The notes: a model not told the origin generated them from the sequence alone. Shown: positions 11,266 to 61,355, counted from the first letter of the stretch. The stretch: DNA of 64,000 nucleotides from a virus (IMGVR_UViG_3300009678_000001); one strand, 5' to 3'. A program made the numbers and translations.

Positions 11266-11273
11266 GTGTAATC
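11266..11273 (+). promoter_or_regulatory. class II motif GTGTAATC
   Basis: ACGGTGTAATC lies 8 nt upstream of the ATG at 11282. Confidence 0.35.
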
Positions 11274-41902: not shown

Positions 41903-42109
41903 TTATTTTATTCCTGCTTTTCTGTTTTCTTTCATTAATTCAATACTATTAACTTGTTGACTAAAAGAGGAAAAAGGACTCCAATTAGTAACTAAATAAA
42001 AATCTCGAAGAAAAACCAAACCCTCACTCAAAACATTTAGTTGTTCGTCCGACAAACATTCGCCCCTTTCCCAAGAGTTAAACAGTGTGGCTACATCTTT
42101 TCCGTTCAT
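41903..42109 (-). CDS. hypothetical protein
   Basis: 68 aa. Confidence 0.55.
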   Translation of the reverse strand: MNGKDVATLFNSWERGECLSDEQLNVLSEGLVFLRDFYLVTNWSPFSSFSQQVNSIELMKENRKAGIK

Positions 42110-43668: not shown

Positions 43669-43919
43669 CAATAATCCAAAACCTCTGTAAAGTCTTGTAT
43701 TTGCTTGGTGCCGCCCTCTGATTCTTTTATTAGTTTAATATAAGTTTCCTTATTAATAGTCCTTGAAGGCATACTGGCTAGTTCTAATGTAAAAATGTCG
43801 GGAGTTGATTGCGCATAACTTGAATGCCTAAACAAACAACCAGTTAGTAAATTAGTAAACTTGTAATAGCCCTCAATATAGACCTTTGCGGTTAGATAGT
43901 AATTGTGGGGAGACAACAT
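43665..43919 (-). CDS. hypothetical protein
   Basis: 84 aa from the Met just after the upstream stop (TAAGATG). Confidence 0.55.
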   Translation of the reverse strand: MLSPHNYYLTAKVYIEGYYKFTNLLTGCLFRHSSYAQSTPDIFTLELASMPSRTINKETYIKLIKESEGGTKQIQDFTEVLDYC

Positions 43920-43920
43920 C

Positions 43921-44232
43921 TTAAATTGTTCCTTGAAGGTCAAAATAAGTTTTCATCATGCCTTTCTCTGTATCGTTCGCTTCTTGAATTAGTTTTTTGC
44001 GTCTAGCACGCCAAACACTCATTGAAGTTTCAAGTTGTGCGTTATAAGGGACGTATCCACTAGAATAAAACCCACACTCGTATCTTTCGAGTCCAATTTT
44101 ATAACCAATTTTTCGTGCGTCTGGAATCCCTGCCTTGGTAAGCTGGTCTTTAGTCCAAAATCTTTTGCGCTCTTTGTCTATATAAGCCGCTTCCAGTATT
44201 TCGCCTGTTTTAGGATAAACAAATTTATTCAT
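43921..44232 (-). CDS. hypothetical protein
   Basis: 103 aa. GGAG lies 5 nt upstream of the ATG in a 17-nt leader. Confidence 0.65.
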   Translation of the reverse strand: MNKFVYPKTGEILEAAYIDKERKRFWTKDQLTKAGIPDARKIGYKIGLERYECGFYSSGYVPYNAQLETSMSVWRARRKKLIQEANDTEKGMMKTYFDLQGTI

Positions 44233-44249
44233 AAATGCTCCAAAACACC

Positions 44250-44277
44250 AGAATACAGCATCTTTTTAAAATGTCAA
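44250..44277 (-). promoter_or_regulatory. class I promoter (17-nt leader with GGAG)
   Basis: TTGACA-16-TATTCT, then GGTGTTTTGGAGCATTT-ATG. Confidence 0.55.
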
Positions 44278-44299
44278 TGCTCAAGCACCGCAGGGCTTC
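44278..44299 (-). repeat. ISL element embedded in the 3-prime end of a CDS
   Basis: AAGCCCTGCGGTGCTTGAGCAT is translated as ..KPCGA*. It directly abuts the TTGACA. Confidence 0.8.
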
Positions 44300-44640
44300 A
44301 GTTCTAATCTAATCCCTTCAATTTTGTTTTTTTCAGTTAAATACCACCCCTCTATTATTAAATCAATATCAATGGTGGTCTTGGGACCAAAGATAGTCCA
44401 TTTTTTGTTTTCAGCCTTATCAAACACAAGTAATGTATTACCATAGTTCATAACGTTAGCTTTGTCCCCTTCAATAAAAGGAGCGTTTTCTATAGTCTGA
44501 CCTAAATCGTCTTGGATTGTTTTAATTAAGAAAAACATATCAGCCACCACCCACCCTTCGCCCAAATGATTATTTTTTGGGTCCTTTGGTTTTTGACCTA
44601 TAGACCAAACAACAATCTTAGAGATGCTTTTTGATTTCAT
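44281..44640 (-). CDS. hypothetical protein
   Basis: 119 aa. Overlaps the upstream gene by 23 nt. Confidence 0.65.
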   Translation of the reverse strand: MKSKSISKIVVWSIGQKPKDPKNNHLGEGWVVADMFFLIKTIQDDLGQTIENAPFIEGDKANVMNYGNTLLVFDKAENKKWTIFGPKTTIDIDLIIEGWYLTEKNKIEGIRLELKPCGA

Positions 44641-45004
44641 CTGGACAAACTTCTAAAAGATAAATTTTTGTTAGTTTATAAATACCTTCAATTAATTGTT
44701 CTCTCTGAGCTACAACTTTGTCCACTTCCTGTTTTACTCTTTTGCCTTCTTTTAATGGCAAAGAAGCAAAATATCTAAAATGACCGTCATAAGAACGTAT
44801 ATAGGCATAACCTTCTCTCCCTAAAAATTTTGGAACTGCAAACCCAACCCCACAAAGAAAACCCGGAAATTGGTCATATTCCCAAAAAAACATCCTTTTT
44901 TCGTGTTTTTTGCCGTCGCCATTACATTCTATACAACGGTTTTTTTCAATAGTCCCTGTTCCTTTACACTCTTTACACTCTCTCTTATTACTTAAATTCC
45001 TCAT
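44618..45004 (-). CDS. protein with DnaJ-type CxxCxGxG zinc finger
   Basis: 128 aa. CKECKGTGTIEKNRCIECNGDG. Confidence 0.6.
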   Translation of the reverse strand: MRNLSNKRECKECKGTGTIEKNRCIECNGDGKKHEKRMFFWEYDQFPGFLCGVGFAVPKFLGREGYAYIRSYDGHFRYFASLPLKEGKRVKQEVDKVVAQREQLIEGIYKLTKIYLLEVCPDEIKKHL

Positions 45005-45016
45005 ATCATAACTCCC

Positions 45017-45265
45017 TCAAAATGAGTTTTTGGTAGTTACAAAAACTTGTTCCATAATTTGGAGTCGAACCTGTTCTTGGGTTTGTTCCCAACCTCTTTC
45101 TAATTGGTCCCAAACTTGGTTTCCAACTTGGTTTCCAATTTGATTGCTAAAGTGATACCTAATTTGATTTAGAATTGTTAAATATTTTTTATCCATTTCA
45201 CAAACAGGTCTAAGACAAAAACCATACCGAATGCTAAAACTAATATTAATATAATGTACATTCAT
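45017..45265 (-). CDS. QVWD-repeat family micro-protein
   Basis: 82 aa. ..NQIRYHFSNQIGNQVGNQVWDQLERGWEQTQEQVRLQIMEQV. ATGA overlap with the upstream gene. Confidence 0.55.
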   Translation of the reverse strand: MNVHYINISFSIRYGFCLRPVCEMDKKYLTILNQIRYHFSNQIGNQVGNQVWDQLERGWEQTQEQVRLQIMEQVFVTTKNSF

Positions 45266-45477
45266 TCAACTAAACTGTTGATTTGGTGCTCAATTTGGTA
45301 GCCAATTTCTGCCCACATTTGGTTTTGAGTTTGGTCCCAAACTTTGTTTTCTATGGTTTGATGCCCAATTTGCTTAGAAATTTGAAGTCTTATTAAGTCC
45401 AAAGTATCTGTTAAGACTTGGCACTGAAACCGGTACTGGTCCCTAATTTGGTCTTTTGTTTTAAATCTCTTCAACAC
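45262..45477 (-). CDS. QVWD-repeat family micro-protein
   Basis: 71 aa. ..DQIRDQYRFQCQV..KQIGHQTIENKVWDQTQNQMWAEIGYQIEHQI. Confidence 0.55.
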   Translation of the reverse strand: MLKRFKTKDQIRDQYRFQCQVLTDTLDLIRLQISKQIGHQTIENKVWDQTQNQMWAEIGYQIEHQINSLVE

Positions 45478-45808
45478 TTAGATTGGTTCTTTGATAAGTT
45501 TCGTATACATCAATAGGGTCGCTGGCTGTCCAAGGCATTAAAATAAAATTAATTCCAAATGGGTGATACATTTCCATTTTTTCTTTGTCTGTTGCCTCGT
45601 CTAAATAGCCAGCCACATACCAATCCAGCCCTTCAAATGGGTAGGCCCAGTTTTTTCCTTTCTTATCCGGCCTGTGTCCTACGACATAAATTCTATCTCT
45701 GTCGTTTCGTTTATAACGCGCCCCTTCCCATTGGTCCGAACCAATCTTTACTTTAACTGGTTGCACGTCAAAACACCCACATTGTTCTAACCATTCTTTT
45801 AAAGTCAT
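45461..45808 (-). CDS. hypothetical protein
   Basis: 115 aa. ATG preceded by a consensus ISL. Confidence 0.65.
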   Translation of the reverse strand: MTLKEWLEQCGCFDVQPVKVKIGSDQWEGARYKRNDRDRIYVVGHRPDKKGKNWAYPFEGLDWYVAGYLDEATDKEKMEMYHPFGINFILMPWTASDPIDVYETYQRTNLSVEEI

Positions 45809-45832
45809 ATGCTCAAGCGCCGCAGGGCTTAG
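45809..45832 (-). repeat. ISL element (consensus)
   Basis: CTAAGCCCTGCGGCGCTTGAGCAT-ATG. Confidence 0.85.
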
Positions 45833-45833
45833 T

Positions 45834-46034
45834 TTATTCTAATTCCCACCATTCGGGGTCCACTTCTGCCAAAGCTTTACCTAAGTCACTAGGAAAAACA
45901 ACGGCAATATCATAAACGGGATTTTCTTTACCTTCACTATCTGATTCTGTCAAACTCAAACCCCTATGATTCAGAGTTAGGTTAGAGACTTTCTTAAAAA
46001 ATGTTTCTAATTTGGCTTTATCGTGTTCTTTCAT
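45834..46034 (-). CDS. hypothetical protein
   Basis: 66 aa, flanked on both sides by consensus ISL copies. Confidence 0.6.
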   Translation of the reverse strand: MKEHDKAKLETFFKKVSNLTLNHRGLSLTESDSEGKENPVYDIAVVFPSDLGKALAEVDPEWWELE

Positions 46035-46057
46035 ATGCTCAAGCGCCGCAGGGCTTA
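46035..46057 (-). repeat. ISL element (consensus)
   Basis: CTAAGCCCTGCGGCGCTTGAGCAT-ATG, identical to the copy at 45809. Confidence 0.85.
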
Positions 46058-46060
46058 GTT

Positions 46061-46324
46061 TTATTTATAATAAGTCTGAATATAGGCATCTGCCACCTGT
46101 TTGAAATAGCTAAAAATTCGCTCTTTTGTTTGTTCTGTTCCGTCGCCGCTCATATTAACAGTTACGCCTCCAATCTTGAGAGGCTTTACTTTACCATCCC
46201 TAAAAAGCCTCAAAAAACGCGAAACTGTCATCAGTTCAACCCACCTACGTTCAGGGGTCTTGATTTCGACCTTGAACTTCTTCACCTTTGGAAGGAAGTT
46301 GGCTACCAACGTAATTGATATCAT
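46061..46324 (-). CDS. hypothetical protein
   Basis: 87 aa with its own promoter. Confidence 0.6.
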   Translation of the reverse strand: MISITLVANFLPKVKKFKVEIKTPERRWVELMTVSRFLRLFRDGKVKPLKIGGVTVNMSGDGTEQTKERIFSYFKQVADAYIQTYYK

Positions 46325-46330
46325 GAAACG

Positions 46331-46358
46331 ATGATAGCGGGTCTTTTTTAAAAATCAA
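46331..46358 (-). promoter_or_regulatory. class I promoter
   Basis: TTGATT-16-TATCAT, 6 nt to the ATG at 46324. Confidence 0.6.
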
Positions 46359-46542
46359 GTCGATTGCTCAAGCCGCTCCTAAAAATTTCACTTACAATTT
46401 GGTCCCAAATTTGCCCCTTAACTTGGTTCCAAGTTTGTCCTCCAATTTGGCTCCCAACTTGTTTCCAAACTTGCTCCCAGACTTGGTCCCCAACTTGGCT
46501 CCAAACTTGGTCTATAATCCTTTCTTTAATTATTTGGGTCAT
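46348..46542 (-). CDS. QVWD-repeat family micro-protein
   Basis: 64 aa. IIDQVWSQVGDQVWEQVWKQVGSQIGGQTWNQVKGQIWDQI. Confidence 0.65.
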   Translation of the reverse strand: MTQIIKERIIDQVWSQVGDQVWEQVWKQVGSQIGGQTWNQVKGQIWDQIVSEIFRSGLSNRLDF

Positions 46543-46548
46543 AAAGGC

Positions 46549-46773
46549 TTAAATTTGGTCCCAAATTGCGTCCTCAAGTTGTTTCCGAAGGTTGTCCCAA
46601 AGTTGTTCCCTAAGTGGATTCCAAACTTGTATAACCTGCATCCAAATTGGGTCCCAAACCTGTTCATCAAGCTGACTTTTAACTTGGTCCCCAACTTGGT
46701 CCCAAATAATCTTACGAATCTCAATATCGGTTTGGTACCAATCCTCCGATAATTTGTCTAGCATCATTTTCAT
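46549..46773 (-). CDS. QVWD-repeat family micro-protein
   Basis: 74 aa. IIWDQVGDQVKSQLDEQVWDPIWMQVIQVWNPLREQLWDNLRKQLEDAIWDQI. Confidence 0.65.
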   Translation of the reverse strand: MKMMLDKLSEDWYQTDIEIRKIIWDQVGDQVKSQLDEQVWDPIWMQVIQVWNPLREQLWDNLRKQLEDAIWDQI

Positions 46774-46811
46774 TTATTAAAACTTTTTTAAAAATCAATC
46801 ACAAAAAGAAA

Positions 46812-47105
46812 CTAAGGAATTCTTGGTGGCAGTGGTAAAACAATTCCTAATTTAGTAAGGGCTTGTTCATCTGTATTGTTCAACCCGTTATAAATCACTT
46901 TTGTAGCTATATAAAGACACTCGGCTTGTGTCCAATCTGGAAACCTTTTCTCTAAAGAATCACAAAATCTATCCCTTAATTCTTCAACAGGTATGGGATT
47001 AGATTTAGAAACAAATGTAAAAGCAATTTTGAAAACCACGTCTGCTAAAATTTCAGAATTATCACTTAAATCTTTTAAAATTTTTGGTGAAATTTTCATA
47101 ACCAT
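46812..47105 (-). CDS. hypothetical protein
   Basis: 97 aa, overlaps the upstream QVWD gene stop. Confidence 0.6.
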   Translation of the reverse strand: MVMKISPKILKDLSDNSEILADVVFKIAFTFVSKSNPIPVEELRDRFCDSLEKRFPDWTQAECLYIATKVIYNGLNNTDEQALTKLGIVLPLPPRIP

Positions 47106-47311
47106 ATTTGCTCAAGAACTTGGTTCCGAACTTCCATGAAAACGTCATTCCTTATTTGTTCCCTAGATGGGTTTCCAACATGCTTCATAACTTGGCTCCC
47201 AATCTCAGTTCGGTCCCCAACTTGGTCCATAACGTGGTCCCAAACTTGGTCCATAACGCGGTCCCAAACTTGGTCCACAACTTGATACTGAATTTTGGTG
47301 ACTAAGCTCAA
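47096..47311 (-). CDS. QVWD-repeat family micro-protein (TTG start)
   Basis: 71 aa. YQVVDQVWDRVMDQVWDHVMDQVGD.. The TTG start immediately follows the upstream TGA. No nearby ATG. Confidence 0.55.
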   Translation of the reverse strand: MSLVTKIQYQVVDQVWDRVMDQVWDHVMDQVGDRTEIGSQVMKHVGNPSREQIRNDVFMEVRNQVLEQIWL

Positions 47312-47608
47312 TCAATCCGCTTTTGTTTCAACTTCTTCAATAGAATATTCAGGTAAAGCTTTATTAATCCGCAGTTTAACGCGCTCTATAATTGGTTTTA
47401 CCACATCGGGCGCTCTGGCTACGGTTTTGAGTTTATTAGCTCTACCTATAGCTACCCGTAAACCAAAGTCTCTGTTAAACGAGTCTCCAGCATCAATATT
47501 GGTATAGCTCCAGCCAATATGAACCGTTTTGCGGTCATGGTCTTCTACTCCCGCCACAATGCCGCGCCTTTGATTTGTTTTGGGGTCTCTGACAAATTGA
47601 ATAAACAT
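47312..47608 (-). CDS. hypothetical protein
   Basis: 98 aa with its own promoter. Confidence 0.65.
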   Translation of the reverse strand: MFIQFVRDPKTNQRRGIVAGVEDHDRKTVHIGWSYTNIDAGDSFNRDFGLRVAIGRANKLKTVARAPDVVKPIIERVKLRINKALPEYSIEEVETKAD

Positions 47609-47614
47609 ATCTGT

Positions 47615-47642
47615 ATTTTAAATATTTTTTTTAAAAAAGCAA
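47615..47642 (-). promoter_or_regulatory. class I promoter
   Basis: TTGCTT-16-TAAAAT, 6 nt to the ATG at 47608. Confidence 0.55.
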
Positions 47643-47646
47643 GCAA

Positions 47647-48642
47647 TTAATAGTCCTGATTTAAAATCTTGACCGACAGTGATTTACCAAGAATTGGGGA
47701 ATATTTGGGCGTTATTGGTCGCAAAACAATCCCCTCTGCCTTGCGCTCTTGTCCTGTAGATGTGAGATAAATAGCCTTGTTAGCTTCTTCCTGAAGCCGC
47801 GCCATGGTCCAAGTATCATCAAATGTAAAAGGTTCACTAACAGGAATAACCACAGGAATTTGCAATTGGTTGCATAACTCATTTATTTCCTGCCAGTTAT
47901 ACCATTTGCCAGTATCAAATTCTTTAACATTAAAGACAAACATCTGAAAACTGTTCAGGCCCAATGGGTTACCTTGAATTTTGCCCCCGCAAGCCTCTGC
48001 TTGAATAGCAATGTTTTTACCCAACTCTTTAAGCTTAGAAGTTAGATTATATTGGTCTGCAATCTTCCAAAAGCCGGTCCCTTCTTTTTGCTCCAGCCGC
48101 CGACTGCAAACGCGAACTTCACCGTTTTCATAAATCACAGTCATTGAAGAACCGTCAGCTTTGATAGTTAAATAACAAAGTTCATTCCTAAACTCTTCTA
48201 AAATCTCTGGATAGTTTTGAATGTTTTCTTCGTCTGTAATTGAGATTAAATGAGTAGGAAAAGAACCCTTGGCGTCTCCATTAACAGAAGAATCAATAGG
48301 TTTGTCGTATTTTAAAATACCTAAAGCTTCCGAAACGTCCGAACCTTCTTCAACCTGATAGTTATAGCTTGGAATGATAGTTAAAGGGCAAACTAAACCC
48401 TGAGAAGGAGAGCCGCGAAACTTGGCGTTCCAGACACGATATTTTTGCCTTTCTAAAAAACTAAAATAAGAATTCGCGCTAGGAACAATAGAGTCAATAC
48501 GAATAAACACCACTAAATCGCCGTTTTTATATTCTCCCTTCTTAACCACAACAGGCCATTCTTTAATTTTGGCGACTTCAAGAGAGTCGGCGTTGAAATG
48601 TGGTTGGACGCTATGAATTCGTTCAATTGTGGCTAATTTCAT
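47647..48642 (-). CDS. RNA ligase, DRB0094-like (N-terminal OB domain plus nucleotidyltransferase domain)
   Basis: 331 aa. N-terminus MKLATIERIHSVQPHFNADSLEVAKIKEWPVVVKKGEYKNGDLVVFIRIDS. Motif I is the lysine in LTIKADGSS. Confidence 0.75.
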   Translation of the reverse strand: MKLATIERIHSVQPHFNADSLEVAKIKEWPVVVKKGEYKNGDLVVFIRIDSIVPSANSYFSFLERQKYRVWNAKFRGSPSQGLVCPLTIIPSYNYQVEEGSDVSEALGILKYDKPIDSSVNGDAKGSFPTHLISITDEENIQNYPEILEEFRNELCYLTIKADGSSMTVIYENGEVRVCSRRLEQKEGTGFWKIADQYNLTSKLKELGKNIAIQAEACGGKIQGNPLGLNSFQMFVFNVKEFDTGKWYNWQEINELCNQLQIPVVIPVSEPFTFDDTWTMARLQEEANKAIYLTSTGQERKAEGIVLRPITPKYSPILGKSLSVKILNQDY

Positions 48643-48757
48643 TTTAAAAGGTACCCACTAGCGAACTGGCTAGTGGGTGGTTTTTTTTACCTTTACTTAA
48701 CAAGCCTGCAAACCAACAAACAGGTTAATTTGCAGCGTCTTCCCCGAAGACATTTTA
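48643..48757 (-). ncRNA. structured ~110-nt 5-prime leader of the RNA ligase gene (three consecutive hairpins)
   Basis: Minus strand reads GTCTTC-gggg-GAAGAC, CTGCAA-18 nt-TTGCAG and ACCCACTAGC-6 nt-GCTAGTGGGT. This contrasts with the leaderless neighbours. An 18-codon ORF (MSSGKTLQ..) at its 5-prime end is an alternative reading. Confidence 0.4.
48653..48688 (+). terminator. canonical intrinsic terminator oriented on the plus strand
   Basis: 10-bp stem ACCCACTAGC/GCTAGTGGGT followed by GG and T8 on the plus strand, in a region with only minus-strand genes. Confidence 0.5.
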
Positions 48758-48785
48758 ATGATATCAAGCCTTTCTAAAAAGTCAA
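48758..48785 (-). promoter_or_regulatory. class I-like promoter for the RNA ligase leader
   Basis: TTGACT-16-TATCAT. Confidence 0.5.
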
Positions 48786-48786
48786 T

Positions 48787-48809
48787 CTCTCAAGTGCCGA
48801 GGGGCTAAG
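48787..48809 (-). repeat. ISL element (CTC-loop variant)
   Basis: CTTAGCCCCTCGGCACTTGAGAGA abuts TTGACT. Confidence 0.7.
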
Positions 48810-48815
48810 TTTTCG

Positions 48816-48835
48816 CTAAGTGCGCCGCAAGGCTA
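48816..48835 (-). repeat. ISL element (tandem partner)
   Basis: TAGCCTTGCGGCGCACTTAG begins with the TAG stop of 48833..49084. Confidence 0.7.
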
Positions 48836-49084
48836 ATCTTTTTGGTGAACTTTAAATGCTAGTATCTTAGTGGGGTTTGGACAACGCCAACCGTCAGTAA
48901 TACACTCATATCCAAGAGTCCTCAGAACTGTTCTAAAAGTATTTGTTTCACTTAATGATAGTTCTACCGCATCGCCCACATTCATTGTGTTCGCTAAAGT
49001 AATGAGATTCTTTAAGGTTTGTTCTCTTGAACCCCTTCCTTTAGGAATGGGTAAATTTTTATGTATCGTAAAACTTTTAACCAT
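48833..49084 (-). CDS. hypothetical protein
   Basis: 83 aa. Confidence 0.6.
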   Translation of the reverse strand: MVKSFTIHKNLPIPKGRGSREQTLKNLITLANTMNVGDAVELSLSETNTFRTVLRTLGYECITDGWRCPNPTKILAFKVHQKD

Positions 49085-49089
49085 TCGTT

Positions 49090-49521
49090 TTATGGTAAAG
49101 GTAACATTTTACTTGGGATTAGCCTAAATCTATCTTTTTTGTTTTTGCTTTGAATATATCTTTTAATATCATCGTGTCTTCCATAAATACCCCTTTCAGA
49201 GTATTGATAAGGCTCCCATGCACCGTATCCATCCCAATCGGTACAAAACTCAATTACTATCTGAAAAACGGGCGCTTTTAAGTGAACCCATTTTCCTAGC
49301 TTAGAATCATAAACATGTACTCCAGCATTATCATAATATTTTTTGCGCTCTATTTCTTTATAGGTTGTGCCGCCTTTATTGCCACATTTCGGACAATATT
49401 CCCAAGGGTCTTCAATATTTAAAGTAAACTGTTTATGGCAGCTTAAGCATTTAAAACGAGCATAATGGCCATCTCCATGGTCTTCTTGCCATTTGGGACT
49501 AATTTGTAATAAAGTTCTCAT
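49090..49521 (-). CDS. zinc-ribbon protein
   Basis: 143 aa. CLSCHK..CPKCGN. Confidence 0.65.
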   Translation of the reverse strand: MRTLLQISPKWQEDHGDGHYARFKCLSCHKQFTLNIEDPWEYCPKCGNKGGTTYKEIERKKYYDNAGVHVYDSKLGKWVHLKAPVFQIVIEFCTDWDGYGAWEPYQYSERGIYGRHDDIKRYIQSKNKKDRFRLIPSKMLPLP

Positions 49522-49532
49522 ACAGGGCTATT

Positions 49533-49757
49533 TTATTTTTGGTCCCAAACTTGGTCCTCAACTTGGTCCCAAACTTGGCCCTGAACTTGGTCCCAAACTT
49601 GGTCCCGAACTTGGTCCCGAACTTGGTCCCGAACTTGGTCCCGAACTTGGTCCCGAACTTGGTCCCAAACTTGGTCCCAAACTTGGTCCCAAACTTGGTC
49701 CCGAACTTGGTCCCGAACTTGGTCCCAAACTTGGTCCTCAACTTGACCCTCAATCAT
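49533..49757 (-). CDS. QVWD-repeat family micro-protein, hyper-regular member
   Basis: 74 aa consisting almost only of DQVW/DQVR units. The ATG and the minus-strand context favour this frame over the three other open frames. Confidence 0.6.
49541..49750. repeat. near-perfect 12-bp tandem array, about 17.5 units (ACTTGGTCCCRA)
   Basis: Read directly. The units differ mostly at one A/G position (Trp vs Arg codon on the minus strand). The outermost units carry a few other changes. Confidence 0.95.
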
Positions 49758-49770
49758 AAAGATTTAGTTT

Positions 49771-49896
49771 TTAATTCCTCAACTTGCCAATAAACTTGGT
49801 CTTTAATTTGTTACCATTAACTTGGTTCCAAACTTGGTCCCCAACTTGGTTCCGAACTTGGCCCCAAACTTGGCCCCAAACTTGGTCCGCGTTCAT
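49771..49896 (-). CDS. QVWD-repeat family micro-protein (below the ORF-track cutoff)
   Basis: 41 aa: MNADQVWGQVWGQVRNQVGDQVWNQVNGNKLKTKFIGKLRN. Confidence 0.5.
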   Translation of the reverse strand: MNADQVWGQVWGQVRNQVGDQVWNQVNGNKLKTKFIGKLRN

Positions 49897-49903
49897 AAAA
49901 GAA

Positions 49904-49925
49904 GGGTAGCCCCGCAAGGCTACCC
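49904..49925 (-). repeat. ISL-related 8-bp hairpin / terminator-like
   Basis: GGGTAGCC-ttgcgg-GGCTACCC-TTCTTTT-ATG, downstream of the DUF932-like gene. Confidence 0.6.
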
Positions 49926-49934
49926 CAAATTAAC

Positions 49935-50939
49935 CTAATTTTTTGGCAAGGTTAAGTCCTGTAGGAGTAAATCAGTAGCCCTCTGTTTGAGATTAGCTCC
50001 AGTACCAAGTAGCGCCGATTCAAACTTTGCTTCCTGTCTATTAGCTCCTTCTTCTGCTCTGGTGCTTCTTTTTTGGTCAACAAATTCAGTTATACTGTTT
50101 AGGTAATCATACCTTGTCTCGCCTACATTCCCTGTGCCACGCTGAAAAAGTTCTGTTACCTGCTCTCGAATATTCTCAGTTCTTGAGCTACATTCATAAA
50201 GTCCAGTTTCCTTATTCAATTTCCCCGGAAACAAGGTTTCATTGTACCTAACTACCTCTTCTTCATTGCATTTCTGGTCTTTGAGCATTTTCAAGACTAG
50301 CTCCAGCCGCCCAAAATAACCATAAGCAATTCCGAGCGCCCTTTGAACTTCCTCTTTGTGACTCTTAAAACTTTTGGTATGGCGCATCTTAACCTGATTC
50401 TTTGCGCCTTTTAGGGCTGCATTAAGGGTGTTTTGACAGACTACCCGCACCGCTACATTCTGCATCCATACTGAGTGCGTACCATCGTGGCTTGAAATCA
50501 TCAAAATCCACTTGTCCATCTTATCGCTAGGGTCAATATACATGGTTTCTGGCAGCTTGGCCATAATCCAGATTTTGCGCCCCTCTCTTAAAGACCCCGC
50601 AGTCTCATAAACTGCCTGACCTTCAGAAATAACCGAATCAAAAAATTCAAAAGCTTCCTCGTTTTGGACTGGCGTATATCGATTACCTACCACTCCCAGT
50701 TTAACCCCATTGTCCTCCCTTACAACAGCTTTATAATCTTCAAATTCAGAAAGACCACTCTCTGTCTGAATAAAAATTGGCTCTTTGCGAACCCTCCAAT
50801 CCAAATGCGCCAATTGGATTGCTTCTTTGGCTGTAACTGTTCCTTTGACAACGCTTCCCAATGAATGCCAAGGAACTATATTATTACCGCTAAAAGTTTC
50901 CGCAGTGCCGTCTTCTCTAATTGTTATTTCGTGTGACAT
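49935..50939 (-). CDS. DUF932-like (phage/plasmid TIGR03299-type) protein
   Basis: 334 aa. ..NIVPWHSLGSVV..TAKEAIQLAHLDWRVRKEPIF..AVVREDNGVKLGVVGNRYTPVQNEEAFEFFD..ETAGSLREGRKIWI matches the family pattern. Confidence 0.7.
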   Translation of the reverse strand: MSHEITIREDGTAETFSGNNIVPWHSLGSVVKGTVTAKEAIQLAHLDWRVRKEPIFIQTESGLSEFEDYKAVVREDNGVKLGVVGNRYTPVQNEEAFEFFDSVISEGQAVYETAGSLREGRKIWIMAKLPETMYIDPSDKMDKWILMISSHDGTHSVWMQNVAVRVVCQNTLNAALKGAKNQVKMRHTKSFKSHKEEVQRALGIAYGYFGRLELVLKMLKDQKCNEEEVVRYNETLFPGKLNKETGLYECSSRTENIREQVTELFQRGTGNVGETRYDYLNSITEFVDQKRSTRAEEGANRQEAKFESALLGTGANLKQRATDLLLQDLTLPKN

Positions 50940-51616: not shown

Positions 51617-51872
51617 TCAAATAATCATCGGGATTAACTTCTTCGCCAACATCGTCTTCTTCAGTTAAAGGAGAACCACAAATAGCACAAATTTCTTCTA
51701 AAAGCGAATAGCTGCTATGCGCTCCGCCATCTCCCTCTTGAACCAATACTTCAACCAGTTTATAGACGCGCCAATTGACTAACTCTGCTAATACTGGCAA
51801 GTCTTCCTTGGTAGGAGGCCAACAAGAGGCGCAAAGGTCTAAATGTTGGTCGTTAAGTCTTATTCTAGGCAT
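51609..51872 (-). CDS. hypothetical acidic protein with CxxC pairs
   Basis: 87 aa. CASCW..CAICGSPL. Confidence 0.6.
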   Translation of the reverse strand: MPRIRLNDQHLDLCASCWPPTKEDLPVLAELVNWRVYKLVEVLVQEGDGGAHSSYSLLEEICAICGSPLTEEDDVGEEVNPDDYLNE

Positions 51873-51895
51873 CTCTCAAGCGCCGAGGGGCTAAG
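51873..51895 (-). repeat. ISL element (CTC-loop variant)
   Basis: CTTAGCCCCTCGGCGCTTGAGAG-ATG. Confidence 0.75.
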
Positions 51896-51896
51896 T

Positions 51897-51912
51897 TTTC
51901 GCCGCAGGGCTA
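51897..51912 (-). repeat. ISL element (tandem partner, truncated)
   Basis: TAGCCCTGCGGCGAAAA begins with the TAG stop of 51910..52116. Confidence 0.65.
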
Positions 51913-52116
51913 GTTTATTTTTATGTTCCAAATGTGTTCCACAACTTGGCCTTCTACTTCTTCCCCAACTTCTTCCCAAACTTGGCCCCAAACTTGTTCA
52001 AAAACCTGTTCCCAAACTTGACCTTCTACTTGGTCCCAAATTTGTTCCCCAATATGGTTATGAACTTGGCTCCTAATTTGGTCATCAATTTGCTTCCTAA
52101 TGTTATCTTTCGTCAT
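51910..52116 (-). CDS. QVWD-repeat family micro-protein
   Basis: 68 aa. MTKDNIRKQIDDQIRSQVHNHIGEQIWDQVEGQVWEQVFEQVWGQVWEEV..KIN*. Confidence 0.65.
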   Translation of the reverse strand: MTKDNIRKQIDDQIRSQVHNHIGEQIWDQVEGQVWEQVFEQVWGQVWEEVGEEVEGQVVEHIWNIKIN

Positions 52117-52347: not shown

Positions 52348-52375
52348 ATGATAATAAAAGTTTTTAAAATGTCAA
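52348..52375 (-). promoter_or_regulatory. class I promoter
   Basis: TTGACA-16-TATCAT, 7 nt to the ATG at 52340. Confidence 0.55.
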
Positions 52376-52398
52376 TGCTCAAGCGCCGCAGGGCTTAA
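52376..52398 (-). repeat. ISL element (consensus)
   Basis: TTAAGCCCTGCGGCGCTTGAGCAT abuts TTGACA. Confidence 0.8.
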
Positions 52399-52407
52399 GC
52401 CCTTTTT

Positions 52408-52641
52408 TTAAAACGCCGAGGGGCTAAGCGCCATAGGGGGTTCTGTGTTCCAAGCTTGGTGCCAAATTTGGTTTTCTACTTGGCTCCCAATCTGTTCCCA
52501 AACTTGGTCCCAAATCTGTTCCCAAACTTGGCCCCAAACTTGGCCTTCTATTTGGTTCCAAATTTGGTCCCCAATATGGTGGTCCCCAATATGGTCCCTA
52601 ACTTGGTCCATAACTTGGTTCTGAATGTTGTCTCTTGTCAT
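52408..52641 (-). CDS. QVWD-repeat family micro-protein
   Basis: 77 aa. MTRDNIQNQVMDQVRDHIGD..QIWNQIEGQVWGQVWEQIWDQVWEQIGSQVENQIW. Confidence 0.65.
   Translation of the reverse strand: MTRDNIQNQVMDQVRDHIGDHHIGDQIWNQIEGQVWGQVWEQIWDQVWEQIGSQVENQIWHQAWNTEPPMALSPSAF
52410..52432 (-). repeat. ISL element embedded in the 3-prime end of a CDS
   Basis: GGCGCTTAGCCCCTCGGCGTTTTAA is translated as ..ALSPSAF*. Confidence 0.7.
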
Positions 52642-60335: not shown

Positions 60336-61355
60336 CTAGGTTAATTTCTCTGCATTCGTAAACCAATTACTGTTGCGCCATTTAAGGGCCGCTTCAATCG
60401 TGCTACATTCAGGGGCTACGCCCTCCAAATGCCACACTCCAACTGAAGGATTAAGCATCTTAAGATATTTGGCGTTTGGAACAACGTCTGATAAATTGAC
60501 ACTAAGAAGCTCATAGTTGCCAAGCTTTTCCAAAACCTTATGACTTAAGCTTACCAACATGCGCTCAATTCCAATTTTGCGAATTAGCTCTCTCCGCTTG
60601 TCCACATTGGTTTCTTTTAAAACTTCTTTGGGATTGAGTTTTTCCGCAGGAGTTAAAACCTGTTTTGGGGACATAGCTATTCCATTCAGGAAATAAAGCT
60701 TCCAACCATCAGAATATTCAACCGCTGGAGCTTCATCTTTGTGAAGTCGCCCTTCGCTATTGCGCCAAATTTGGGTTGGCTTGCTGGTAACAATGAGGCA
60801 GCTATCAGTAGGGTAAAAAAGGCCCAAATCCGCGCAAGCTTCAAGCTTATCGTAGTTTTTCATAACTTCAGCGTCAAATTTAACTCCAATCATCTTGTAG
60901 GCGCTTACCCACCCAAAATAATTGGAATAAAAATGACCATCAAAGTAGGGCCAGACAAAAAGCTTAATGGTATTTTTGAGCTTTGTAATAAGGTCCTCTT
61001 CTGAAAGAGGATTTTTGGACTTGAAAGTTATTTGGCTATTAATCTGTTCCCAAGTTGTTTCAAACAAGCCCCGCAAATTCTTATTTATCTCACTAAAACT
61101 GGGGCGCTTTGGATTCCAGTTTTCATAGCCCCCCTCACTCAAAAGGCAAAAGGCAATCCAACCGCCAAAAGGACTAGAAACATGAATGACGGGGTTTTTC
61201 TTGCCCAAAATTTGCTCGCTCCATTCGCCTCCTAGCCTTTGTGCTTCGCTGGTTGGAACTTGGCGACAGTCAAGCGCCCTGTCCCGCCAGTAATTCTTGA
61301 TTTCCTCAAGTTTTTTGACTTGTTCGTCAGTTAGTTTTTCGATTTTATCTGCCAT
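60336..61355 (-). CDS. hypothetical protein
   Basis: 339 aa, no recognised motif. Confidence 0.7.
   Translation of the reverse strand: MADKIEKLTDEQVKKLEEIKNYWRDRALDCRQVPTSEAQRLGGEWSEQILGKKNPVIHVSSPFGGWIAFCLLSEGGYENWNPKRPSFSEINKNLRGLFETTWEQINSQITFKSKNPLSEEDLITKLKNTIKLFVWPYFDGHFYSNYFGWVSAYKMIGVKFDAEVMKNYDKLEACADLGLFYPTDSCLIVTSKPTQIWRNSEGRLHKDEAPAVEYSDGWKLYFLNGIAMSPKQVLTPAEKLNPKEVLKETNVDKRRELIRKIGIERMLVSLSHKVLEKLGNYELLSVNLSDVVPNAKYLKMLNPSVGVWHLEGVAPECSTIEAALKWRNSNWFTNAEKLT

Follow-up and report, generated by a model that had tools for sequence, protein, structure and literature searches.

The window analysed here is a stretch of 64,000 nucleotides that corresponds to bases 132420-196419 of an IMG/VR virus record of 208,933 bp, rated complete by CheckV; it differs from that record by a single base, at 42043, and blastn against 50,697 phage records returned no DNA relatives of it. 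Minus-strand genes form a long block around the locus considered here, which comprises an RNA ligase gene, an upstream neighbour of 83 aa and a gap of 190 nt between the two. Read along the minus strand, this gap holds a stem-loop pair, a promoter, hairpin 1, hairpin 2, an A-rich linker with A8CC at its end, hairpin 3, ACCUUUUAAA and the AUG of the ligase. The features are as follows.

48786..48836, minus strand: two stem-loops in tandem, copies of an intercistronic motif that the genome repeats (GCC-NNNN-GGC..CTTGAG), directly ahead of the -35 box
48758..48785, minus strand: sigma70-type early promoter, TTGACT-16 nt-TATCAT with a TG at the extended -10 position, 10/12 matches
48697..48753, minus strand: mini-ORF of 18 codons (MSSGKTLQINLFVGLQAC, then a stop), its ATG 4 nt after the -10 box
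48643..48751, minus strand: predicted 5′ UTR of 109 nt, from a G, the 7th base past the -10 box, to the last base ahead of the AUG
48737..48751, minus strand: hairpin 1, GTCTTC/GAAGAC, 6 bp with a GGG loop, pair probabilities 0.98-1.0
48706..48735, minus strand: hairpin 2, CTGCAA../..TTGCAG, 12 bp including two G.U pairs, 6-nt loop
48631..48706, minus strand: basal helix of GGCU (48706-48703) with AGCC (48634-48631, codons 3-4), pair probabilities 0.74-0.93
48653..48678, minus strand: hairpin 3, ACCCACTAGC/GCTAGTGGGT, perfect 10-bp stem with a 6-nt loop
48652..48688, plus strand: intrinsic terminator with an 11-pair stem (6 G-C), a 6-nt loop, one G and T8 (48681-48688)
47647..48642, minus strand: ATP-dependent RNA ligase gene of the Rnl5/DRB0094 type, 331 aa

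The encoded protein combines an N-terminal OB domain with a downstream nucleotidyltransferase domain and has the KxDG motif in the form IKADGSS. It matches PF21189 (PHA02142 OB; E 2e-22) and PF09414 (RNA_ligase; E 3e-20) in Pfam, scores 172.5 bits against the NCBIfam model TIGR02306 (RNA_lig_DRB0094), above the cut-off of 151.15, and aligns with the Naegleria gruberi NgrRnl structure 5COT at an E-value of 1e-40, KADGSS facing KLDGSS. Judged by these matches, the ORF is a clear member of the Rnl5/TIGR02306 (DRB0094-type) family, which is what an earlier reading of the DNA, made from the sequence alone (the sequence-only reading), had taken it to be. Ligases of the Rnl5 type seal 3′-OH/5′-PO4 nicks whose 3′-OH strand is RNA.

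Further upstream, two opposite-strand ORFs of similar length overlap, 48833-49084 on the minus and 48870-49127 on the plus strand. The former starts 5 nt past the stop of the gene upstream of it and fits the local operon; a gene map built on the longest ORFs wrongly chooses the latter. A near-verbatim copy of the stem-loop pair lies 3 kb off, at 51872-51920, where an ATG follows in place of the -35 box, such that the junction reads GAGAG-ATG there and GAGAG-ATTGACT at the ligase. Variants of the motif conserve the GCC/GGC stem, with one showing ACC/GGT.

Early promoters and the predicted 5′ end of the ligase mRNA

The genome holds a large set of near-identical promoters, TTGACA-TTTTAAAAAGATnTTG-TATAAT, which we treat as an early promoter family defined by TTGACx, a 16-17-nt spacer with a TTTTAAAAAG core and a TAnnnT -10 box. 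The ligase promoter, TTGACT-TTTTAGAAAGGCTTGA-TATCAT, falls within this definition, and by our own count its spacer agrees with the consensus at 12/16 positions. Behind 37 of the 69 family promoters, an ATG lies 6-9 nt after the -10 box and opens an ORF of at least 38 codons, the gap being exactly 6 nt in 20 of these 37; those transcripts should therefore start at or beside the AUG. For the family as a whole, the commonest predicted start falls on the 7th base past the -10 box, which at the ligase promoter is G48751, preceded by T. The ligase ATG itself lies 115 nt after the -10 box and thus outside the 6-9 nt that mark a leaderless gene. Nor is the ligase made leaderless by a second promoter closer to the gene: no acceptable -35/-10 pair could be read in the 46 nt before its ATG.

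The leaderless neighbours with which the sequence-only reading had contrasted the ligase are real at the level of the family, though not as a general rule: about ten family promoters have leaders of 30-97 nt, mostly ahead of larger genes, and the gene directly upstream of the ligase is operonic rather than leaderless. These other early leaders are unstructured, with z-scores of -1.9 to +2.0 and energy densities of -0.01 to -0.27 kcal/mol per nt. Across the minus strand of 25000-64000, small early genes are leaderless, and larger ones (263-396 aa) stand behind the same promoters with unstructured, A-rich leaders of 30-76 nt, as illustrated by the DUF932 gene at 49935-50939 and the gene at 60336-61355. 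Words resembling a Shine-Dalgarno sequence are not enriched before the genes of this phage (15% versus a background of 14%).

The leader fold and a terminator on the opposite strand

The predicted leader of the ligase folds at -42 to -45 kcal/mol (-44.7), or -0.36 kcal/mol per nt, with a z-score of -4.66 by dinucleotide and -5.7 by mononucleotide shuffles. Pair probabilities are 0.89-1.0 across the three hairpins, with the exception of the closing A-U pair of hairpin 3 (0.66). A leader of about 110 nt with three hairpins, as described in the sequence-only reading, is indeed found where that reading had placed it; its CTGCAA/TTGCAG hairpin is present as well, and in fact extends well beyond these six pairs.

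Each hairpin has its own particularity. The first base of hairpin 1 is the predicted +1, so that the transcript, if this start is correct, would open with a flush 5′-terminal stem-loop. Hairpin 2 is continuous in the sense RNA only, since the complement of each of its G.U pairs is an A.C mismatch, by which the plus-strand helix is broken. Hairpin 3 is extended by AAAGGU (48694-48689) pairing with ACCUUU (48652-48647) over a bulge formed by A8CC, with a probability of 0.86-0.98. The basal helix closes this 3′ domain and partly encloses the AUG, whose A and U are unpaired with probabilities of 0.43 and 0.26, respectively, while the four bases directly before the AUG remain open. Features that would suit an RNA thermometer of the fourU or ROSE type, in which heat-labile pairing hides the Shine-Dalgarno sequence or the AUG, are the pairing of UUUU with AAAG beside the AUG and the partial pairing of the AUG itself. 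However, the genome shows no use of Shine-Dalgarno sequences, the minimum free energy (MFE) structure is identical at 15, 25, 37 and 45 C, and hairpin 3 survives deletion of the 5′ arm of hairpin 2; we therefore see no switch. In these models, the unchanged MFE structure argues against switching, and it is no proof of function.

In a ranking of 55 intergenic regions 80-300 nt long, the ligase gap comes third by z-score and second by energy density, and the regions that outrank it on either measure contain ordinary co-oriented terminators. Searches for known RNAs gave no match: nothing in the whole window reached the gathering score of an Rfam model, and the leader, searched at E-values up to 10, returned chance hairpins only (a microRNA model, for instance, reached 25 bits versus a gathering score of 79). 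ARAGORN found no tRNA-like gene in the leader in either standard or relaxed mode, a comparison with the five tRNAs of the phage revealed no resemblance, and hairpin 3, searched as an exact sequence, had no match in IMG/VR. Nor is there a second copy of the leader in the genome, where blastn-short finds chance 10-13-mers only; the leader is therefore not a repeated element or MITE. Likewise, the idea that the mini-ORF is a decayed QVWD tetrapeptide repeat was dropped, as the leader belongs to no repeat family and has no significant blastn-short match in the genome.

No intergenic region of the genome is more structured than one outside the window, at genome positions 43828-43937 on the plus strand (z -6.0). 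There, a GTGTAA motif precedes a long hairpin, and a T-run then extends exactly to the ATG of a plus-strand gene; by this layout, the region is a candidate for a structured leader, or an attenuator, oriented with its gene.

Read as plus-strand RNA, hairpin 3 has the anatomy of an intrinsic terminator, for which we required a GC-rich stem of 5 bp or more, a loop of 3-8 nt and a U-tract no further than 2 nt from the stem; its energy is -19.5 to -20.3 kcal/mol. The T8 that the sequence-only reading had noted here is in place, one G past the stem. Its description as a textbook terminator for the wrong strand is sound in terms of anatomy and slightly overstated in terms of strength: the G spacer holds the score of the plus-strand tail to 3.2, below the range of most co-oriented terminators (4.7-5.9), and the tail on the sense strand scores 0.69. 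A genome scan for hairpins followed by T6 or more yielded eight co-oriented intergenic terminators versus a single opposite one, which is hairpin 3 and the most stable of all. In a looser scan, 20 co-oriented sites compare with six opposite ones, of which just two are intergenic. Runs of at least eight A or T number 32 in the 209-kb genome (13 A-runs and 19 T-runs); such runs being rare, a chance meeting of one with the most stable hairpin of the genome is very unlikely.

The mini-ORF brings up the possibility of a leader-peptide attenuator, in which the 18 codons would be translated leaderless and the position of the ribosome would decide whether transcription terminates at hairpin 3, ahead of the ligase. 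Leaderless translation is widespread in this phage, and the mini-ORF, with its ATG after the -10 box, extends over the first two hairpins to a stop 5 nt past hairpin 2. However, this ATG follows the -10 box by 4 nt, outside the 6-9 nt observed in all 37 leaderless members of the family, and for this reason it probably lies off the transcript, cut by the start site. Further objections are the absence of a regulatory codon run, the poor sense tail and a hairpin 3 that stays shut without the 5′ arm of hairpin 2. The same three findings on start window, tail and folding contradict, in its classical form, the attenuator that the sequence-only reading had listed among its options, and we consider a mechanism of this kind very unlikely.

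If the terminator serves the plus strand, where would the transcripts come from? We found no plus-strand promoter of the early family near the ligase leader. The only promoter-like site within the ligase gene, at 48504-48533 on the plus strand, has 9/12 matches and a spacer of 18 nt; sites of this quality are about as common as expected by chance (23 found versus 19.5 expected). The block to antisense transcription envisaged earlier therefore has a real terminator and no visible source of antisense RNA. The terminator could alternatively end a plus-strand cis-antisense RNA of ~150 nt which, starting from a promoter in the 5′ part of the ligase gene and stopping at T8, would repress the ligase by covering its start, with the OOP RNA of phage lambda as a model. 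A strong plus-strand terminator exactly at the 5′ end of the ligase is what such an RNA would call for, and the weak site at 48504-48533 might provide its promoter; the chance-level score of this site, however, and the lack of a family promoter or a GTGTAA motif on the plus strand nearby make the cis-antisense RNA decidedly improbable.

The GTGTAA motif deserves a comment of its own. In the form GTGTAA(A/T), it is intergenic in 15/36 plus-strand and 14/43 minus-strand copies (29/79 in total), and because only ~7% of the genome is intergenic, we think that it is probably the core of a late promoter. It usually stands 12-35 nt ahead of an ATG in the structural block, as at 11266 (+), 17261 (+), 2876 (-) and 13056 (-). 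As a source of antisense transcripts, late promoters of this kind were discarded: there is no plus-strand GTGTAA at 44000-50000, and the nearest upstream copy is 16 kb away, within a gene.

A second and far weaker terminator-like site with plus orientation, AGGGCTTAAGCCCT followed by T7, is located at 52390-52410 (+). It falls below the energy threshold of the genome scan and overlaps a pair of the stem-loop motifs just upstream of the promoter at 52375.

Related ligase loci

For comparison, we collected 19 locus entries with ligases 52-67% identical to the one studied here; several of these repeat a contig or a sequence, and together they represent ~10 distinct sequences. Ligase proteins at 68-75% identity also exist (P0002-P0012). 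The upstream regions are arranged as follows.

L005/L006 and L016/17/19: own TTGAC-type promoter, ATG 6-7 nt after the -10 box, leaderless
L022: own promoter, ATG 9 nt after the -10 box, nearly leaderless
L004 and L007/L011: promoter driving a leaderless small ORF, 45 aa long in L004, whose end meets or overlaps the start of the ligase
L012-L015: ligase abutting the gene upstream

Of the related ligase loci, five are leaderless or nearly so, four have the ligase behind a small leaderless ORF, and in four it abuts the upstream gene. The leader is present in none of the related loci examined, at 52-67% ligase identity. At this distance, the related phages thus lack the hairpins, an outcome that the sequence-only reading had itself named among those that would refute it, and neither a conserved riboregulator nor a conserved small RNA is supported. 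What survives of its regulatory leader is a real structure of the sense strand, as evident from hairpin 2, which requires G.U pairs.

The arrangement in L004 and L007/L011, where a small leaderless ORF separates a similar promoter from the ligase at a similar distance (~140 nt), lends weight to the main rival of a tuning 5′ UTR. According to this alternative, the leader would be a functionless relic: a small leaderless cassette once lay between promoter and ligase, and a truncated 18-codon ORF would be what remains, together with a terminator-bearing fragment gained or inverted through recombination. A leader that is unique and not conserved, with a terminator that faces the "wrong" way and has no visible client, agrees with such an origin. 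Yet neutral decay would not leave stems that are perfect or interrupted by G.U pairs only, at a z-score of -5.7, nor does it account for a hairpin 1 that coincides with the predicted +1. Moreover, the leader read in three frames, by eye only, shows no likeness to the small ORFs of the relatives, and blastn-short reveals no related DNA elsewhere in the genome. On balance, we regard a relic as unlikely, albeit as a serious contender.

The Rnl5 ligase sits inside or beside a cluster of tRNA genes in 6/9 related loci (L004:144-4921, L005:1171-3695, L007:120-386, L011:140-582, L014:524-600 and L016:114-198), and in L004, L005 and L007 a tRNA ends just ahead of the ligase promoter. This neighbourhood fits a tRNA-repair role for the ligase. 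The focal genome has its five tRNAs elsewhere, the closest ~27 kb from the ligase, which suggests that the ligase gene was relocated in this lineage. In L013, the gene just upstream of the ligase (L013:1200-1500) has the look of a homing-type HNH endonuclease, with a CxxCN..A..D motif recognized by eye.

Could the leader give rise to an RNA of its own? A discrete sense RNA of ~100 nt might be freed from it by leaky termination or processing at hairpin 3, and with its own promoter and a stable hairpin at each end, the leader has some of the attributes of such a species. Hairpin 3, a 10-bp helix followed by ACC and then UUUU, loosely resembles a tRNA minihelix, and next to a ligase that in most of the nine relatives keeps company with tRNA genes, a structured RNA would not be out of place. 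Still, the U-tail in the sense direction scores far below those of most co-oriented terminators, the relaxed ARAGORN and permissive Rfam searches give chance matches at most, there is no likeness to the five tRNAs, and the leader is not conserved; we consider a released small RNA quite unlikely. A variant of the minihelix idea is that hairpin 3 plus ACC mimics a tRNA minihelix and replaces the flanking tRNA genes of the relatives, directing processing by an enzyme of the tRNA type or recognition of the ligase mRNA by the ligase itself. Expression of the ligase would then depend on the tRNA-processing and repair state of the cell; we find this idea scarcely credible.

A further alternative has the leader serve as operator, substrate or guide for the ligase or another RNA-repair protein, with autoregulation through the long bulged hairpin. 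The position of a long bulged helix beside the start codon would suit an operator, as would the general analogy with the translational operators of phage T4. However, relatives with the same ligase do not conserve the hairpin, and nothing in its sequence ties it to the ligase, which renders this alternative highly improbable.

A tentative role for the leader and its known counterparts

Our preferred reading, to which we assign a probability of roughly 40%, is that the leader constitutes a lineage-specific structured 5′ UTR that may stabilize the ligase mRNA, dampen its translation and insulate it, as a fixed setting that senses no signal. Host RNA polymerase would start at G48751, such that the mRNA opens with hairpin 1 and has its 5′ base paired. 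Since 5′-terminal stem-loops shield bacterial mRNAs against 5′-end-dependent decay, hairpin 1 would protect the ligase mRNA and raise its stability. Hairpin 2 would act as a structure of the sense RNA, and hairpin 3, the AAAGGU/ACCUUU extension and the basal helix reaching into codons 3-4 would keep the AUG part-closed, resulting in less translation from a start independent of Shine-Dalgarno pairing. In the plus-strand direction, hairpin 3 with its T8 would halt an antisense polymerase past the ligase gene and before the ligase promoter; in the sense direction, termination at hairpin 3 would be leaky at most. The net effect would be to hold stability, level and insulation of the ligase mRNA at a fixed setting.

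At the level of sequence, a 5′ UTR of this type is suggested by the early-family promoter and by a modal start that coincides with the first base of hairpin 1. The folding models add a structure far beyond that of shuffled sequences and G.U pairs that make hairpin 2 specific to the sense RNA, against a background of unstructured leaders elsewhere. The absence of Shine-Dalgarno enrichment, the partly paired AUG and a hairpin 3 plus T8 whose anatomy matches that of the genome's own terminators point in the same direction. Counting against the preferred reading, the start site is a prediction only; the relatives are without the leader, hence there is no sign of covariation or long-term selection; the terminator has no convincing plus-strand promoter ahead of it; and transcripts reading through from upstream would carry hairpin 1 internally.

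If the preferred reading is correct, a phage with standardized leaderless early cassettes would single out one enzyme by means of a shielding hairpin at the 5′ end, a part-closed start and a reverse terminator. This would help to read the expression logic of uncultured jumbo phages and would provide a natural insulator part. Our understanding of RNA regulation would be unchanged, the leader being limited to one lineage and made of pieces of known kinds.

Among known systems, the Rnl5 enzymes DraRnl (DRB0094) of Deinococcus and NgrRnl of Naegleria resemble the ligase in their OB and nucleotidyltransferase domains and KxDG motif, a likeness that concerns the gene and not the leader. Within the family, the related phage ligases are usually found in a tRNA cluster and are leaderless or operonic, whereas the ligase described here has a structured leader.

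For the leader itself, the closest parallels differ from hairpin to hairpin. 5′-terminal stem-loops that stabilize mRNAs are found in the ompA 5′ UTR of Escherichia coli, the ermC and aprE leaders of Bacillus and the stabilizer of phage SP82. Stabilizers of this kind place a stable hairpin within 0-2 nt of the true 5′ end. The ligase leader, which is long as well, would share this placement and would have no unpaired 5′ base, provided that the predicted start is correct; in contrast to them, it occurs in a genome in which most early mRNAs have no leader. Hairpin 3 resembles intrinsic terminators in its GC-rich stem of 10-11 bp, 6-nt loop and T8 after one base, and bidirectional terminators in particular in having an A-tract and a T-tract on either side of the stem; it differs in its location within a 5′ UTR, its orientation against the local gene direction and its weak sense tail, and is the sole such case in the genome. 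Phage T4 provides examples of translational operators and of closed initiation regions in leaders, among them gene 32, gene 43 and the targets of regA. Similar to these, the leader described here is structured, and the start codon of an early enzyme gene lies partly enclosed in it; in contrast to them, it is not conserved, involves no Shine-Dalgarno element and has no known binding protein. Each piece of the leader, the 5′-terminal stem-loop, the part-closed initiation region and the intrinsic terminator, is thus of a known kind, and it is their combination that appears peculiar to this lineage.
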